A DNA stretch of 46,293 nt from a virus (IMGVR_UViG_2925897562_000003), one strand, 5' to 3'; positions 3,927-41,406 are shown, counted from the stretch's first letter. Notes: generated by a model not told the origin, from the sequence alone. Translations and numbers: made by a program.

Positions 3927-4511
3927 TTACACGGTGTCTGGTTCTTCTGGCCACTCAATATCCGGTGCAGTTGATGTATCAACACGGTTCAGCAACACCC
4001 GATACTTTTTCCAGGCTTCCAGCAATGAGGTTTCTTCCTCCGTTGCGATTTCCAGATCTACAGCATCCTGAAGTGGCGCAATATGCTCACTGGCTACCTG
4101 CATCAGGCTGTTTTTTGTTTCTTCTGCCTCCCGGATCCGGAACAGTTTTTCTGCTTCCGTATCCTTCACCCAGGCTGTGCCGTTCCACTTCTGATATTCC
4201 CCTCCCGGCGACAACCAGGTAACATTTTCCGGTAACGGACCGAGTTCAGAAATAAATAACGCGTCGCCGGAAGCCACGTCATAAACCGTTTTACCCCGAT
4301 GGTCTTCAACGAGATGCCACGATGCCTCATCACTGTTGAAAACAGCCACGAAGCCTGCCGGAATATCTGGTGGTGCAATATCGGTACTGTTTGCTGGCAG
4401 ACCTGTATGAGGCGGAATATATGCGTCACCTTCACCAATAAATTCATTAGTTCCGGCCAGCAGATTATAAATTTTTATGGTCCGTGTTTGTTCACTCATT
4501 CTGAATGCCAT
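3927..4511 (-). CDS. tfa: Tail fiber assembly protein (lambda Tfa-like)
   Basis: 194 aa immediately downstream of stf; composition and position typical of lambdoid Tfa. Confidence 0.8.
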
Positions 4512-30353: not shown

Positions 30354-31280
30354 ATGAAAGTTAGAAGCATAGGATTTACAATAAATAACAATAACAAAAA
30401 TATTAATACCGTTGACGTAATGAATGCTTTTATCAACGCATCAAACAGAGAACACAGTCGCACAGACTATACTCGTAAAATTCTCATTTCGGATGTGAAT
30501 GATTTCTATTATGGATTAGTTGTCACATTCAGAAACCAAAAAAAGAACTGTAAGTCGCAATTTGTTGATGGTAAATTCCAGCTTAAAATTGAAGATCTTC
30601 AAGGAAGTGACAAACTTGCTAATTTCAACTTTTTCTTAATTAAAAAATCTAATCTTTCTGGTCTCTATATGTATCACCACGGTTCATGCAGTCTGAACAC
30701 TCTCTTTTCTCATTTAGAAACAATAAGTAATGAATTTATCAGAAATCAAAATAAAGAAGAAATAAAAAAACTTGGTGATAAACCAAAACAAAAAGAAGTA
30801 ACTGCAATAAATAAAAAATACAAAGAAAGACTGACTTTCAGCCTTATGACAAATAAAAACAACATTCAGAGTGTTTTATGTCAATTCAAAGAGATTAAAA
30901 GCACAAGCTTTAAATTTAATTATATAGATTTTAAAGGTGGACCAATGACTGCGCTTGAACAATTTGTTAACACCACCACAATAGATATGAATTTTAATTC
31001 TAGCGACAGAACAAAAGTGCAACAACTATCTCAGAATCTTTCAAATATTTATAATTCTATGAGTGGAGTTGCTAAAGCACAGGTTATTGCAGTAAACCAT
31101 GCAGGAATAGAAAAAACCATTGATTTTATGAACTGCCCTGTTTTTTTTGAAACATACGATTTCGATATAATTGCCGATAAAGTCAATGGATTGACAAACG
31201 ATAATTATACAACAAACCCTGTTTTTGATATGATAAAAGAAGAAATGCTGAACGGGACGAATAAAAATGCCTTTATATGA
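30354..31280 (+). CDS. Hypothetical protein (308 aa), visibly AT-rich gene, Asn/Lys-rich; first gene of the accessory cassette
   Basis: Long uninterrupted ORF on the strand opposite to the late genes; codon usage clearly unlike the surrounding phage genes (runs such as aataacaataacaaaaatattaat). Confidence 0.6.
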   Translation: MKVRSIGFTINNNNKNINTVDVMNAFINASNREHSRTDYTRKILISDVNDFYYGLVVTFRNQKKNCKSQFVDGKFQLKIEDLQGSDKLANFNFFLIKKSNLSGLYMYHHGSCSLNTLFSHLETISNEFIRNQNKEEIKKLGDKPKQKEVTAINKKYKERLTFSLMTNKNNIQSVLCQFKEIKSTSFKFNYIDFKGGPMTALEQFVNTTTIDMNFNSSDRTKVQQLSQNLSNIYNSMSGVAKAQVIAVNHAGIEKTIDFMNCPVFFETYDFDIIADKVNGLTNDNYTTNPVFDMIKEEMLNGTNKNAFI

Positions 31281-31411: not shown

Positions 31412-32481
31412 CTTGAATTGTCAAACCAAGTGCAACGATTTTTTGAAGTAAACTTCATAAGGTGTTTTCCAACCTAAACATTTACGTGGTCGTAAATTCA
31501 GTTTATTGATCACCTGTTGAATATCAACTTCGCTCCACTGATTGATGTCTTGGTGCTTCGGAAAGTATTCACGAAGTAACCCATTTGTATTTTCATTCGT
31601 TCCCCGTGTCCACGGTTGATGCGGCTCGGGGAAGTAAAATTCTACACCCAGTGCTTCTGTTACCAAACGATGTTGGGCAAATTCTTTACCACGGTCTGGC
31701 GTAATTGACCGCAATATATGTGAATCCAGCAATTCAATCATGGCTTTTTGGACTGCTTCGGCTTTTTTGGCAGGAATTTTCTTCACCAACTCAAAACGAC
31801 TTTTGCGTTCCGTCAGCGTCAGCAAACAAGCTCCACCCGCTTTACCCAGTACGGTATCGGCTTCCCAATGTCCAAAGCGACTGCGATTTTGCGCCGAAAT
31901 GGGACGGTCGTTCAAATGGTTGGATATCTGAATTTTGCCACGTTTTTCATGATGATTTTTTGTATGCCGTGTTTTGCCTTTGTGGCGCAGTTTGCGACTG
32001 GCTTTGCGTTCGCCTATATCAAACAACCCTGAATAAATACCACGATAAATGGTTGAATAACTAATGGATAATTCAGATTTTTCCAATTTTAATCGTGCGC
32101 TGATTTGTTCGGGCGACCAGTTTTCTGTCAGAAACTTTTCTTGCACCAAATTGAAATATTCAGGCTGCTCTAATTTGCGCTGTGCTTTGCTATTTTGACG
32201 ATGCTTCAAATAGCTGTTTTGTGCGTTCGTTGCACTGTAGCTTTCTAGAGCGTGTCGTTTCAGCTCGCGAGAAATGGTGCTGGAGCTACGTCCCAGTGCT
32301 TTGGCAATTTCTGCTTGTTTTTTGCCCTGTGCGAGTAAAATCATTATCTTTTCTCGCTCGTTTATTGTAAGATGTCGGTAGGAAGTACTCATCATTTGGA
32401 AGTGGTTTTTGTGTGGAAACAAAATTATATTCTAGTTGATGAGTACTTCTTTTTTTGTTGCACTTGGATTGTAAATTCAGC
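31412..32481 (-). mobile_element. IS30-family insertion sequence (about 1.07 kb), possibly ISApl1-like
   Basis: Single transposase ORF flanked by imperfect roughly 25-bp terminal inverted repeats (left TGAATTGTCAAACCAAGTGCAAC, right reverse complement TGAATTTACAATCCAAGTGCAAC); exact ends and target duplication not resolved. Confidence 0.8.
31421..32344 (-). CDS. IS30-family transposase (DDE); 307 aa from MILLAQ, ORF track extends to 32422
   Basis: N-terminal HTH (AEIAKALGRSSSTISRELKR), catalytic region HWEADTV...TPDRGKEF...TRGTNEN typical of IS30 transposases. Confidence 0.85.
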   Translation of the reverse strand: MILLAQGKKQAEIAKALGRSSSTISRELKRHALESYSATNAQNSYLKHRQNSKAQRKLEQPEYFNLVQEKFLTENWSPEQISARLKLEKSELSISYSTIYRGIYSGLFDIGERKASRKLRHKGKTRHTKNHHEKRGKIQISNHLNDRPISAQNRSRFGHWEADTVLGKAGGACLLTLTERKSRFELVKKIPAKKAEAVQKAMIELLDSHILRSITPDRGKEFAQHRLVTEALGVEFYFPEPHQPWTRGTNENTNGLLREYFPKHQDINQWSEVDIQQVINKLNLRPRKCLGWKTPYEVYFKKSLHLV

Positions 32482-32899: not shown

Positions 32900-33241
32900 T
32901 TACAACATTGAAAGCACACCATCCAGAAAACCAAGAGCTGTTTGCAACTCTTTTCTTATTGTCCCATCAGAACACTTCTGCTTCTTTGCAATAGTTCTTA
33001 GTGAGATGCCGATAACAAAATGAGCAATAACCAACTCATACTCTTCGGGCTTATATTTCCGCAATCGCGCAACACAGCTGTCAATCATGATTCCTTCATC
33101 ATCATCGCATTGTTGACGTGTTTTCTTTCCATGAGGTAGTAAACCTTTAAACCCTGCAGCAACAGGCTGCCAGTCCACACCACTGTTATCTGCTGCAGCC
33201 CATGCACCCCAGCGGTCCAATACTTCATACATATCACGCAT
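32900..33241 (-). CDS. Q: Late antiterminator Q (QuuD / phage-82 Q-like)
   Basis: LDRWGAWAA...AAGFKGL...CDDD...CVARL resembles E. coli QuuD as recalled; start taken at ATG 33241 (ORF track uses an upstream TTG at 33256). Confidence 0.7.
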   Translation of the reverse strand: MRDMYEVLDRWGAWAAADNSGVDWQPVAAGFKGLLPHGKKTRQQCDDDEGIMIDSCVARLRKYKPEEYELVIAHFVIGISLRTIAKKQKCSDGTIRKELQTALGFLDGVLSML

Positions 33242-33258
33242 CAACTTTCTCCACAAAA

Positions 33259-37756: not shown

Positions 37757-37989
37757 GCTGCACCTCCGAGATGCTTCATGTTTTTTCCGGAGCGAAAGGC
37801 TATAAGCGGCATACTGACGCGGTAATTACGGCCCAGCGGTTCACAAACCACCTTCTGACATTCACGGTCAACCAGGCTAACACGTAGAACATGCCCTGCA
37901 GGCGTGGTGTACCACTGCCCAACTGTAGGAATTGATGTTTTTTTACGCTGAAGCAAACGGCAAATATTGAGGATCAACGGATTAAGCAT
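37753..37989 (-). CDS. Hypothetical protein (78 aa)
   Basis: ORF in operon context only. Confidence 0.3.
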   Translation of the reverse strand: MLNPLILNICRLLQRKKTSIPTVGQWYTTPAGHVLRVSLVDRECQKVVCEPLGRNYRVSMPLIAFRSGKNMKHLGGAA

Positions 37990-38818
37990 GACGATGCCCT
38001 CCGCTGATATTCAGGAGACGGTGAATATGAAAATTAGCCTTATCCGCCAAACGGATACGTTCAGCCTGCAAGTTAAGAAGGGTTTCTACCAGAACCTGAT
38101 GCGCCTGCGGATCCGAAAGAGTTACCTTGCGCAGAGCACGTAGTGCAGTTGTTACATAACTGAGTTTATGTAAGTCTTCATCATTCAGACGAGTGAGGGC
38201 TGGGACAGTAGCCATGATGGCAGCCTCCGATAACAGTGAATTACCTTCACCACCGGAAACGCCAATTTCGCTGGTGGTGAACTGAACGGGGTTGGCGTAA
38301 CCGGCGTTATCGGAAACCGGCGCACCTTTCGGTGCCCCCGTCCAGCCCACCATAATTTGGGTGTGCGCAGACGCAGACGATAAAAAAGACGCTGGCGCGT
38401 CATATATCGCCGATAACATTTCCAGGACGCCAATCCCGGCACCCGCTTTATAAGGTGCCTGAACAGTGTAACGTCCCGGAATGGCAGAATCAATGTGCTG
38501 GTGGTCCTTCACACTCAACAAAATCACGCCTGAATTTCCACAAAGGACTAAAGCACTCATGCGGGTAGTCTTTGCGAAGATAGATAACGCGCTGTGTTTC
38601 TGGCTCCCAACGAATAACATGGACATAAAGCCCTCTTCCATCACGAAACCAGCGGTTAAGTTCCTGCACAACTCGCCCCCCACAGTCAGGTAAAGTTCTC
38701 TGTGGTTACTTACAGCCAGGTGATTTGGTAATCTGCATTCATGCCGTAACAACAGGTGTTCAGCGACACTGACCACCAGCTGTTGCGACAAACGGTTATT
38801 TGCCGTTAAACTGTTCAT
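37982..38818 (-). CDS. Hypothetical early-right operon protein (278 aa)
   Basis: ORF in operon context between the cII-like and replication genes; no family recognised. Confidence 0.4.
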   Translation of the reverse strand: MNSLTANNRLSQQLVVSVAEHLLLRHECRLPNHLAVSNHRELYLTVGGELCRNLTAGFVMEEGFMSMLFVGSQKHSALSIFAKTTRMSALVLCGNSGVILLSVKDHQHIDSAIPGRYTVQAPYKAGAGIGVLEMLSAIYDAPASFLSSASAHTQIMVGWTGAPKGAPVSDNAGYANPVQFTTSEIGVSGGEGNSLLSEAAIMATVPALTRLNDEDLHKLSYVTTALRALRKVTLSDPQAHQVLVETLLNLQAERIRLADKANFHIHRLLNISGGHRHA

Positions 38819-39610: not shown

Positions 39611-39700
39611 ACAATATGTACCTCCGATATACATATTACATGATTGAGATGAACCTTCAAGATACTTGTACCTTATCGGTACAAAGGTTTTAATTTCTTT
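39611..39700. promoter_or_regulatory. Divergent promoter/operator region between cro and cI, with inverted repeat TTGTACC-N5-GGTACAA (39666-39684)
   Basis: Palindromes containing GTAC cores read directly in the 90-bp intergenic region. Confidence 0.5.
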
Positions 39701-40375
39701 ATGAAAACAGTCCATGACATCCGGCGGTCTAACGCCAGAAAACTGAGAGATGGTGTTGGCGGGAATTCTTCCTTTGCCACCATGATTGATCGCGAGCCAA
39801 CCCAGACCAGCAGGTTTATGGGAGATGGTGCTACTAAAAATATCGGTGACAGCATGGCAAGGCACATCGAAAAATGTTTCGACCTGCCTGTCGGATGGCT
39901 TGATCAAGAACACCAGACCACGAACATCACAAAAAAACCTGATGTTTCAATCACTAACAAACAAATAACGTTAGTCCCTGTCATATCATGGGTACAGGCC
40001 GGAGCATGGAAAGAAGTTGGCTATTCTGAGGTTGATTTGAGCACAGCAGAAACTTATCCCTGCCCTGTACCCTGTGGCGAAATGACTTATATCTTGCGGG
40101 TGATTGGTGATTCAATGATTGATGAGTACCGCCCGGGAGACATGATTTTTGTTGATCCTGAAGTCCCTGCCTGCCACGGTGACGACGTTATTGCATTGAT
40201 GCACGATTCAGGCGAAACCACCTTCAAGCGATTGATAGAAGATGGAACACAGCGTTATCTCAAAGCATTAAACCCAAACTGGCCTGAGCCTTACATTAAG
40301 ATTAACGGTAATTGCTCTATAATTGGTACAGTGATTTTCTCGGGAAAACCAAGAAGATACACAATAAAGGCCTAA
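39701..40375 (+). CDS. cI: CI-like prophage repressor (HTH plus S24 LexA-like autopeptidase domain)
   Basis: 224 aa; C-terminal region VIGDSM...; divergent from cro. Confidence 0.85.
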   Translation: MKTVHDIRRSNARKLRDGVGGNSSFATMIDREPTQTSRFMGDGATKNIGDSMARHIEKCFDLPVGWLDQEHQTTNITKKPDVSITNKQITLVPVISWVQAGAWKEVGYSEVDLSTAETYPCPVPCGEMTYILRVIGDSMIDEYRPGDMIFVDPEVPACHGDDVIALMHDSGETTFKRLIEDGTQRYLKALNPNWPEPYIKINGNCSIIGTVIFSGKPRRYTIKA

Positions 40376-40387
40376 TCAATATTTATG

Positions 40388-40410
40388 AACCTGCTTCGGC
40401 AGGTTTTTTT
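40388..40410 (+). terminator. Rho-independent terminator after cI (AACCTGC-ttcg-GCAGGTT then TTTTTTT)
   Basis: 7-bp stem, tetraloop, T-run read directly. Confidence 0.65.
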
Positions 40411-40414
40411 ATAC

Positions 40415-40452
40415 TTGACAATGTACCCATGAGATACATAATGTATCCAAAA
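40415..40452 (+). promoter_or_regulatory. Early-left promoter candidate (TTGACA, 17 bp, ATAATG) overlapping a 15-bp perfect palindrome GATACATAATGTATC
   Basis: Consensus -35, near-consensus -10 and a perfect palindrome over the -10 read directly; downstream of the cI terminator. Confidence 0.5.
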
Positions 40453-40851
40453 GAAACATAAGGCAGGCAAGATTCAAACAAAATTTGGTTGTAACACGGC
40501 GTATGGCACATGCGTCGTTAGCGGTCTGGGGACGTTAAAGGGGACAATCCACTTCTTGCTCGGGCAAACAAACCAGGTAGCCGGAATGTGCAAGTCAATG
40601 ATGATGCAGATAAGACGCCTAACCAGCGTGGCGATTCGGTTTGACGCCTGAGAAGAGACCAGGGTGCAACGATGAGGGCATTTATGGAGCCGCGACAAAG
40701 TGTGGTGCCGTAACTGGCTAAGTGCTCTCAGCGTTGTGGTAATCCGCGAAATGGCGCGGCGGTAAGTATGGCGGGGTTACTCTTTCCCCGTTGAGGACAC
40801 CGGATTGTCAGGTTGACCATACGCCTGAGTGACAACCCCACCACAACAGCC

Positions 40852-40907
40852 ACTGCTTTGGCGGTACCAGTTTGTACCCTTGCTTCCGGCTGGTACCGCT
40901 CTTTTTA
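40852..40907 (+). ncRNA. dicF: DicF-like small RNA candidate ending in an intrinsic terminator
   Basis: TTTGGCGGTACCAGTTT matches the core of E. coli DicF as I recall it (TTTGGCGGTATCAGTTTT); followed by a 10-bp stem GCGGTACCAG/CTGGTACCGC and CTCTTTTT. Confidence 0.4.
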
Positions 40908-41043
40908 CAAAACAGAGAAGAGCATCACCGGACGACGGGCTCATAACCCAATCCATCCGGGCGGCTGCCACCGCAGGTGTTCTTCTCCGTTTTGTGGAGA
41001 AACCAACCGACCTTGCAGGGTCGATATGATGAGGAGCAGCAAA

Positions 41044-41406
41044 ATGGCTAGCGAACGCAGTACTGATGTGCAGGCATTTATTGGGGAGCTGGACGGCGGC
41101 GTATTTGAAACCAAAATCGGCGCAGTTCTCAGTGAAGTCGCTTCCGGTGTGATGAACACGAAAACCAAAGGTAAGGTCTCGCTCAACCTGGAAATCGAAC
41201 CGTTTGATGAGAATCGTGTGAAAATCAAACACAAACTCTCGTATGTTCGCCCGACTAACCGCGGGAAAATTTCCGAAGAAGACACCACCGAAACGCCGAT
41301 GTATGTCAATCGCGGTGGTCGCCTGACTATTCTGCAGGAAGACCAGGGACAATTACTGACTCTTGCTGGTGAACCTGACGGAAAACTCCGCGCAGCAGGT
41401 CATTAA
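41044..41406 (+). CDS. Hypothetical early-left protein (120 aa; possibly YfdP-like)
   Basis: ATG at 41044 with GAGGAG RBS; ORF track extends upstream over the sRNA region. Confidence 0.5.
   Translation: MASERSTDVQAFIGELDGGVFETKIGAVLSEVASGVMNTKTKGKVSLNLEIEPFDENRVKIKHKLSYVRPTNRGKISEEDTTETPMYVNRGGRLTILQEDQGQLLTLAGEPDGKLRAAGH

Follow-up and report, generated by a model that had tools for sequence, protein, structure and literature searches.

A structured non-coding leader with a conserved, unclassified RNA core in the early-left operon of an N-less lambdoid phage

Background

Structured RNAs carried by phages include GOLLD and ROOL, which lie next to tRNA genes, and the tRNA clusters of phages are known to carry extra stable RNAs. 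Two systems from lambdoid phages and prophages stand closer to the locus studied here. The first is DicF of the Qin prophage, whose biogenesis proceeds by RNase E processing together with either termination or RNase III cleavage (PMC5069750). [quoted passage not shown] It needs no phage protein and works on the polymerase in cis (PMC9378689); Casjens and colleagues have speculated that LLS, an N-less relative, uses a put-type mechanism (PMC12315714).

Here we analyse the leader of the early-left operon in a 46,293-nt stretch of viral DNA (the window, to which all coordinates refer), a lambdoid phage of the 2H10 / SfV / KplE1 type. A preliminary description had likened this leader to the dicF leader of Qin or to a cis-acting antitermination RNA such as put. 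We find two folded modules, the A core and element B, joined by a spacer and followed by a putative sRNA with its own terminator, and comparison of the sequences makes it probable, in our judgement, that the leader is both a polycistronic precursor of non-coding RNAs and a gate on early-left transcription in a phage without N.

Results and discussion

A non-coding leader between the cI-like gene and yfdP

The leader begins past the terminator of the cI-like gene and ends at a YfdP-like gene (phrog_204, E 1e-49) whose GAGGAG stands 7 nt ahead of the ATG (Table 1). The early-left promoter lies 9 nt past that terminator and scores 11/12 against the consensus, a promoter is annotated at the homologous site in the record of phage Ayreon, and we infer a transcription start near 40449. 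Exact copies of the operator-like 17-mer within the promoter are found elsewhere in the window only at 39617-39633 and 39667-39683, both between cI and cro; with one mismatch allowed the window holds seven matches against 0.66 expected, a number reached by none of 100 shuffles. Because the 17-mer recurs in the cI/cro intergenic region, the early-left promoter is plausibly repressor-controlled. Past the YfdP-like gene follow a YfdQ-like gene, an HD phosphatase, small ORFs, a TorI-like excisionase and the integrase.

Table 1. Features of the leader and its borders, in window coordinates
Feature	Position	Strand	Remarks
cI-like repressor gene	39701-40375	+	phrog_4 match, transcriptional repressor with S24 domain
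Intrinsic terminator of cI-like gene	40387-40406	+	8-bp stem, then T-run; 5' bound of the leader
Early-left (pL-like) sigma-70 promoter	40415-40442	+	TTGACA 40415-40420, 16 nt, CATAAT 40437-40442
Operator-like palindrome TGTACC-N6-RTACA, 17-mer	40422-40438	.	inside promoter spacer
A core, 175-nt structured RNA, unclassified family	40491-40665	+	alignment A1, covariation, covariance model
A core helix P1	40497-40501/40513-40517	+	six-helix model
A core pseudoknot PK1, GCACAU:AUGUGC, invariant	40506-40511/40586-40591	+	six-helix model
A core helix P2	40521-40528/40574-40581	+	six-helix model
31-aa ORF	40556-40651	+	leader ORF listing
A core helix P4	40615-40618/40626-40629	+	six-helix model
A core pseudoknot PK2	40621-40624/40638-40641	+	six-helix model
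26-aa ORF	40641-40721	+	leader ORF listing
A core helix P5, GAAGAG-type loop	40647-40651/40659-40663	+	six-helix model
H1 spacer unit, long stem GCAACGAUGAGGGCA / UGCUCUCAGCGUUG enclosing a small hairpin	40666-40732	+	fold z-score -3.7
Element B, four-helix RNA with pseudoknot	40733-40847	+	homology and covariation
Element B closing stem	40733-40740/40840-40847	+	four-helix model
Element B first hairpin	40744-40748/40755-40759	+	four-helix model
Element B pseudoknot GUAUGG : CCAUAC	40766-40771 : 40817-40822	+	four-helix model
Element B second hairpin	40772-40776/40786-40790	+	four-helix model
Element B third hairpin	40802-40810/40830-40838	+	four-helix model
TTG-started open in-frame extension of yfdP	from 40813	+	leader ORF listing
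66-aa ORF, GTG start	40829-41029	+	leader ORF listing
Putative sRNA at DicF position	40848-40906	+	variable 5' region, then intrinsic terminator
sRNA terminator	stem 40861-40872/40888-40899, UCUUUUU 40900-40906	+	12-bp stem and U-tract
Second long imperfect stem, 7 + 12 bp, with insert	40907-40995	+	40907-41046 fold -50.2 kcal/mol, z -3.3
Small GC hairpin	41008-41023	+	between second stem and RBS; opposite strand terminator-like
RBS and YfdP-like first gene	RBS GAGGAG 41031-41036; ATG 41044 to 41406	+	end of the leader

The stretch 40449-41043 is non-coding, as the preliminary description held in placing an ORF-poor leader of about 600 nt upstream of the first sizeable gene. The interval to which it drew attention, 40453-40851, spans the A core, the spacer and element B; the leader extends to 41043, so that the sRNA terminator (40861-40906) falls just beyond the end of that interval. 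The statement that the plus strand offers only peptides of 10-20 aa until 41044 needs correction: the first convincing gene does begin there, and RefSeq annotates yfdP at the matching position in homologous prophages, but the leader contains plus-strand ORFs of 31, 26 and 66 aa. The longest closed one is of a length expected by chance, 66 aa against 60.5 +/- 21.9 in 1000 shuffles, 34% of which reach it. Among 36 relatives of the A core, whose longest ORFs measure 0-41 aa, length differences are not multiples of three (mod-3 classes 18/12/6) and frames are not kept. The leader thus holds no conserved small ORF, and the small ORFs were rejected as leader genes for their chance lengths and their want of conservation. 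That the leader should encode small proteins, for example from the 31-aa ORF, the 66-aa ORF or an antisense ORF of 74 aa, is hardly credible: the records of Ayreon, cdtI and mEp460 do annotate hypothetical ORFs in this stretch, but on strands that differ from record to record, and against such proteins stand also the match of ORF lengths to shuffled sequence, the loss of frame through non-triplet indels and substitutions that are compensatory within RNA helices.

An N-like gene is likewise missing, as had been noted: among the 20 ORFs of both early operons scanned against PHROGs no N-type antiterminator was found, the matches being to Cro-, CII-, O-, RusA- and Q-like proteins, an excisionase and others. 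Nor is N annotated in mEp460 or Stx2a_1447, two relatives arranged in the same way. For boxA there was no match in the leader, and matches across the window stay at chance level. The leader occupies the niche of lambda N/nut and rrn boxA, the start of the early-left operon, but unlike lambda N/nut it comes without an N-like protein and without boxA above chance; with a YfdP-like protein encoded by the first gene as well, a system of the lambda N/nut type was rejected.

BLAST shows the leader to be a mosaic of blocks that are widely shared, with 98% identity to Escherichia phage 2H10 along its length. At least 80% of it is present in 890 of 5426 complete E. coli genomes and some part, most often element B, in about 4760 of them; it is also found in Stx2a- and Stx2c-converting phages and in P1-type plasmids. 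In Stx2a_1447 (L353 11875-12654; WGPS2-type) and in O157 Stx2c-converting phages the order CI, leader, yfdP is the same as in the window, no N is annotated, and the leader is either unannotated or annotated as a hypothetical protein.

Structure prediction, which the preliminary description had proposed as a check, gives a fold of -224 kcal/mol for the whole 598-nt leader (z-score -3.8). The Rfam search that it had also proposed, for DicF and put among others, yielded neither DicF nor any other credible family in the leader at E<=10; over the whole window at the gathering threshold, and in the leader at E<=10, the only matches were to IS009, C4 and isrK, all outside the leader. The IS009 RNA match (229 bits) lies at 3970-4168 on the minus strand. 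A C4 antisense RNA (RF01695, 82.8 bits; 38270-38458, minus strand) lies beside isrK (RF01394, 63.7 bits) within the span of a 278-aa regulator ORF (37982-38818), a c4 module of the P1/P7 immI type inside a lambdoid early-right operon. Elsewhere in the window, a near-identical 17-mer, TGAACCGTG.TGATACA, is present at 3975-3991 and 30670-30686, and a transposase-like ORF (31421-32422, minus strand) adjoins the gene for a Q-like antiterminator (32900-33256).

Element B and the sRNA slot are related to the Qin dicF locus

Window positions 40733-40839 are about 93% identical to a segment carried by most E. coli genomes. In Qin (L001 4001-4107) this segment is located in the interval from ydfC to dicB and stops 25 nt short of the Rfam match to DicF (4133-4184, 76.7 bits). 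In phage P1, element B with a terminator follows directly after the C1-controlled ban promoter, in what the depositors labelled a "dicF-like region". Sequence comparison shows homology of element B and of the slot for sRNA and terminator with both the Qin dicF locus and the beginning of the P1 ban operon. The conservation of element B is probably in part on record already, in Faubladier and Bouche 1994, the P1 genome paper and King 2011; the conserved motifs of the leader were not found in print in the literature searched, nor did the supplements of Tree et al. hold sequences matching the leader.

In the four-helix model of element B, pairing stands at 94.7% and 7 pairs are compensatory, against 0-1 of 500 shuffles as good and slid controls at 29-54%; the diversity behind this covariation is limited because the sequences were gathered by a fixed-loop pattern. 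Its middle hairpin occurs with at least six differing stems, all of which pair. ARAGORN finds no tRNA in the window and Rfam none in the leader at E<=10, so that element B was rejected as a tRNA. What resemblance there is consists of the four-helix junction and of the slot, which in O157 typing phage 9 (L004 2742-2900) is taken by a tRNA-Arg(UCU) whose flanks, GUU/GUGG ... CCAC, are those of element B in the window. In that phage the tRNA-Arg is followed by a DicF-type hairpin, CUUGGCGGUGAUGG...CUAUCACCGCCCUUUUU.

After element B the window reads CAACAGCCACUGCUUUGGCGGUACCAG...CUGGUACCGCUCUUUUU, an sRNA-like unit whose fold reaches -22.5 kcal/mol (z -3.2). By position it corresponds to DicF, lying directly 3' of the pre-dicF element and ending in a Rho-independent terminator. 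The DicF model (Rfam RF00039), which as a control detects Qin DicF at 76.7 bits, gives no match in 40300-41150 even at E<=10, a result that counts against the reading preferred below. Direct comparison found only UUUGGCGGUAnCAGUUU in common with DicF, whose pairing regions (the 5' seed UUUCUGGUGAC and the 3'-proximal region, for xylR/pykA and ftsZ) are absent. Since the 5' region differs, the targets of the sRNA should differ from those of DicF. In IMG/VR at least seven different sRNA/terminator variants are found behind the same element B, and the arrangement appears to be a cassette in which a conserved folded 5' element is combined with a variable seed and a terminator.

The likeness to the Qin dicF leader that had been proposed holds by homology: element B is common to both, and a putative sRNA ending in an intrinsic terminator stands at the position of DicF, but the ydfABC ORFs and the RF00039 match are absent. 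Both loci stand in a repressor-controlled early operon with the protein genes past the terminator, but where Qin has ydfA/B/C upstream the window has the A core and the spacer, and dicB downstream in Qin is replaced by yfdP through int. The leader of the P1 ban operon likewise combines element B, a terminator and the A core in one long, largely untranslated early operon. The order in P1 is reversed, however, with element B and the sRNA first and the A core 2.3 kb downstream, beyond tRNAs and tci genes, in an unannotated spacer between tRNA-Ile and ban (137 bits with the A-core model R2). The "dicF-like region" of P1 is without the DicF 5' seed, and directly 3' of the A core, before ban, P1 (L003) reads UUUUCUGGUGAUGAC at 2700-2716, which is nearly the DicF seed UUUCUGGUGACG.

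The 3' strand of the closing stem of element B and the start of the sRNA (40836-40852) read CACCACAACAGCC, which includes CACAACA, the consensus of GcvB R1 targets that the anti-sRNA AgvB uses (PMC4104026). This motif suggests that the sRNA or its precursor might sponge GcvB. Identity of the sRNA with the anti-sRNAs AgvB or AsxR was rejected, as those genes lie 3' of PR' at the moron site and not in a pL leader.

Beyond the sRNA terminator, no promoter-like site was found between 40906 and yfdP (41044). The second stem is common to many prophages that carry yfdP, and its insert contains GGGCUCAUAACCC (40936-40948), which resembles the anticodon arm of tRNA-Met. Some Klebsiella phages have a tRNA-Arg annotated at the spot homologous to this insert.

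The A core is a conserved RNA without family assignment

A scan of IMG/VR gave 99 unique A-core loci, 41 of them differing by more than 10%, and alignment A1 holds 36 relatives with mutual identity below 90% and lengths of 150-182 nt. Along with long invariant stretches, the alignment supports five covarying helices and one invariant helix, two of the six being pseudoknots. In this model 98.6% of the cells are paired, and compensatory changes are seen at 10 pairs and in 72 cells; none of 500 shuffles is as good, and slid controls reach 28-45%. Covariation in the A core and in element B thus bears out the earlier supposition that the leader is a structured RNA region. The covariance model R2, derived from A1, finds a single copy in the window (136 bits, E 2e-45), and Rfam 15 holds no match to the A core at E<=10. 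The A core is a well-supported structured RNA without a family assignment.

Among 5426 complete E. coli genomes 1832 carry the A core, 553 of its places being on plasmids, and it occurs in P1 and in Uetakeviruses as well. Forty places listed from E. coli comprise 38 that are unannotated and two that fall under a hypothetical protein in RefSeq. A scan of genome contigs by a 16-mer returned mostly chance matches, of which only loci confirmed by the covariance model were kept; at least 13 were confirmed among the first 100 of 120 matches, and those with an organism shown are all from Enterobacteriaceae. A tRNA gene is adjacent on the same strand at 10 of 41 representative loci. In O157 typing phage 9 the promoter-proximal A-core block ends exactly at the 5' end of the tRNA-Arg, and in Uetakeviruses the A core heads a small tRNA/sRNA unit and not a long operon. 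Like GOLLD, ROOL and the T4 stable RNAs C and D, the A core is a phage-borne structured RNA often found beside tRNA genes. It is far smaller than GOLLD and ROOL, to neither of which the leader has an Rfam match, and unlike them it is confined to Enterobacteriaceae and tied to early promoters and DicF-type sRNAs.

The spacer and the order of modules

The A core runs straight into the H1 stem (CAACGAUGAGRGCA ... UGCUCUCAGCGUUG) at 67 of the 99 loci; the inserts differ, and variants of the stem show covariation when compared by eye. Next, 76 of the 99 have GUUGUGG, which is the 5' strand of the closing stem (partner CCACAAC), and the stem it forms can hold element B, a genuine tRNA-Arg or some other cargo. 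Within 420 nt downstream, 64 of the 99 unique loci show a DicF-type terminator arm (TTGGCGG), and the first ORF of 60 aa or more on the same strand lies at a median distance of 409 nt from the A core. A crude count of terminators downstream of A cores was not above that of the antisense strand, and since the antisense strand gives as many matches this count carries no weight.

These borders might be read as DNA, the conserved flanks (CAACGAUGAG..., GUUGUGG / CCACAAC) being linkers that promote the exchange of modules, with the RNA folds incidental. Mosaic breakpoints do coincide with the flanks, and element B, tRNA-Arg and other cargo are swapped between identical GTTGTGG...CCACAAC borders. 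We nonetheless think it very unlikely that they are linkers and nothing else, for the flanks pair and covary (four pairs of the closing stem are compensatory) and recombination does not need pairing. The two roles, linker and RNA stem, are not mutually exclusive.

A second alternative makes the modules a ligand- or factor-responsive attenuator, akin to a riboswitch, that sets termination at 40906 against read-through. A pseudoknotted, conserved, aptamer-like fold does lie upstream of an intrinsic terminator, and GGCGGUA is present both in element B and in the 5' arm of the terminator, in the window and in Qin, so that element B could compete for the 3' arm. The GGCGG overlap is missing in P1, however, 70-300 nt of variable cargo separate the A core from the terminator, a conserved alternative pairing was not found, and the leader has no Rfam riboswitch match; we consider an attenuator of this kind improbable.

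The 3' strands of H1 (AGUGCUCUYUCMGUUGUGG; window 40721-40739) resemble rrn boxA and boxC in some relatives (UGCUCUUUCCGUUGUGG; L188, L131 and L199). In L188 a perfect UGCUCUUUAACAA stands about 40 nt past the A core. In some relatives boxA-like strings follow the A core, L188 having TGCTCTTTAACAA. The phage mEp460, which carries the leader, comes from a collection described as Nus-dependent (PMC11893012), and an RNA mechanism dependent on Nus factors is conceivable.

Comparison with put and the role of the A core

The A core resembles put in position: each is a folded RNA just past pL in lambdoid phages without N. The put RNA is about 70 nt long with two stems, however, whereas the A core has 150-182 nt and two pseudoknots, and HK022 carries a putR while in the window the A core is a single copy on the pL side, with no second copy in the early-right operon. 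A covariance model of put (R1), built from HK022 putL and putR and the puts of HK639, CobraSix and PdC23, recovers all five at 64-98 bits. It found nothing in the leader or in twelve A-core loci, its best score on the leader (701 nt, filters off) being 4.8 bits on the minus strand, and a hairpin of P1 that resembles put stem I scores 0.9 bits. The A-core model R2, in turn, found nothing in HK022, HK639, CobraSix or PdC23. As the models do not detect each other's families, we reject membership of the put family, and the earlier suggestion of a put-like RNA as in HK022 fails in this sense. The motifs that the two RNAs have in common (stem I CGGCG/CGUCG with the same G.U pair, CAUG, AGCG and AAUG-UGC) are anecdotal.

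A functional analogue of put is a separate matter. The A core may be a processive antiterminator RNA, unrelated to HK022 put in sequence and fold, that takes the place of N/nut: folding on the nascent transcript, it would bind RNA polymerase and render it resistant to the DicF-type terminator and, along the untranslated leader, to Rho. The A core lies just downstream of early promoters, and at two loci (L131 and L155) it begins no farther than about 10 nt from the -10 element, a closeness to the promoter that putL shares (PMC9378689). All inspected examples in a pL context (the window, mEp460 and Stx2a_1447) are without N, and between the core and the first gene there are a strong terminator and some 400 nt of RNA that is not translated. 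Its long invariant stretches, unpaired or pseudoknotted, recur across unrelated types of phage within Enterobacteriaceae alone, which suggests a conserved host partner, and the short motifs shared with put also count for the proposal. Against it stand the covariance tests, negative in both directions with the shared motifs at 0.9 bits, the free-standing copies and the mid-operon copy of P1, and the lack of an early-right copy comparable to putR. We regard antitermination by the A core as a tentative proposal, possible and on balance doubtful.

The main rival to a role in cis is a stable RNA acting in trans, a standing it owes to rare free-standing copies: at 2 of the 99 loci a hairpin and a T-rich tract follow the A core directly with no same-strand gene within 900 nt, and these loci, with a terminator-like end of their own and no gene, fit a free-standing trans-acting RNA better than a cis element. 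Flanking stems release the rRNAs by processing, and the A core, perhaps element B also, could be cut from the leader by RNase III or RNase E at such stem stalks, the released RNAs binding or titrating a host protein or RNA early in infection, for instance in host takeover or anti-defence. The free-standing units of promoter, A core and terminator agree with this, as do the preservation of the A-core sequence while its surroundings are shuffled, the adjacent same-strand tRNAs at the representative loci, and GGA and UCCUU-type motifs in hairpin loops. Most loci, however, have no defined 3' end after P5, the core continuing into the H1 stem, and the linkage to a promoter and a DicF-type terminator suits a cis role equally. 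A trans-acting A core seems to us unlikely, and a role in cis is favoured; the mid-operon position in P1 and the small tRNA/sRNA units of Uetakeviruses speak against cis action as the best explanation.

A model for the leader

On the reading that we prefer, of a precursor that is also a gate, loss of the repressor would allow RNA polymerase to initiate near 40449, and part of the transcripts would stop at 40906, at the sRNA terminator. Trimming by RNase E in the single-stranded linker 3' of element B, as for DicF, would then give an Hfq-type sRNA of ~55-60 nt, with element B most likely serving as a scaffold for its maturation or positioning. The remaining polymerases would read through into yfdP and yfdQ and on to xis and int, and the A core most likely works in cis, as a domain of the leader that would aid the polymerase along this long, untranslated, terminator-containing RNA. 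The functions given here to the A core and element B are what we infer from conservation and position.

Conclusions

Although the leader is common, the records leave it blank or fill it with spurious hypothetical proteins, and this gap in annotation covers what appears to be a cassette system with interchangeable sRNA seeds of which DicF is one member. Such a cassette leads one to expect a series of prophage sRNAs, so far uncharacterised, that have new targets. The A core, for its part, occupies the very place at which an antitermination device would be required in N-less lambdoid phages. Were it to act as one, it would explain early antitermination without N in a large lambdoid group, and it would be the means by which N-less lambdoid phages, including the Stx2a and Stx2c phages, P1-like phage-plasmids and Uetakeviruses traverse DicF-type terminators and long stretches of untranslated RNA.
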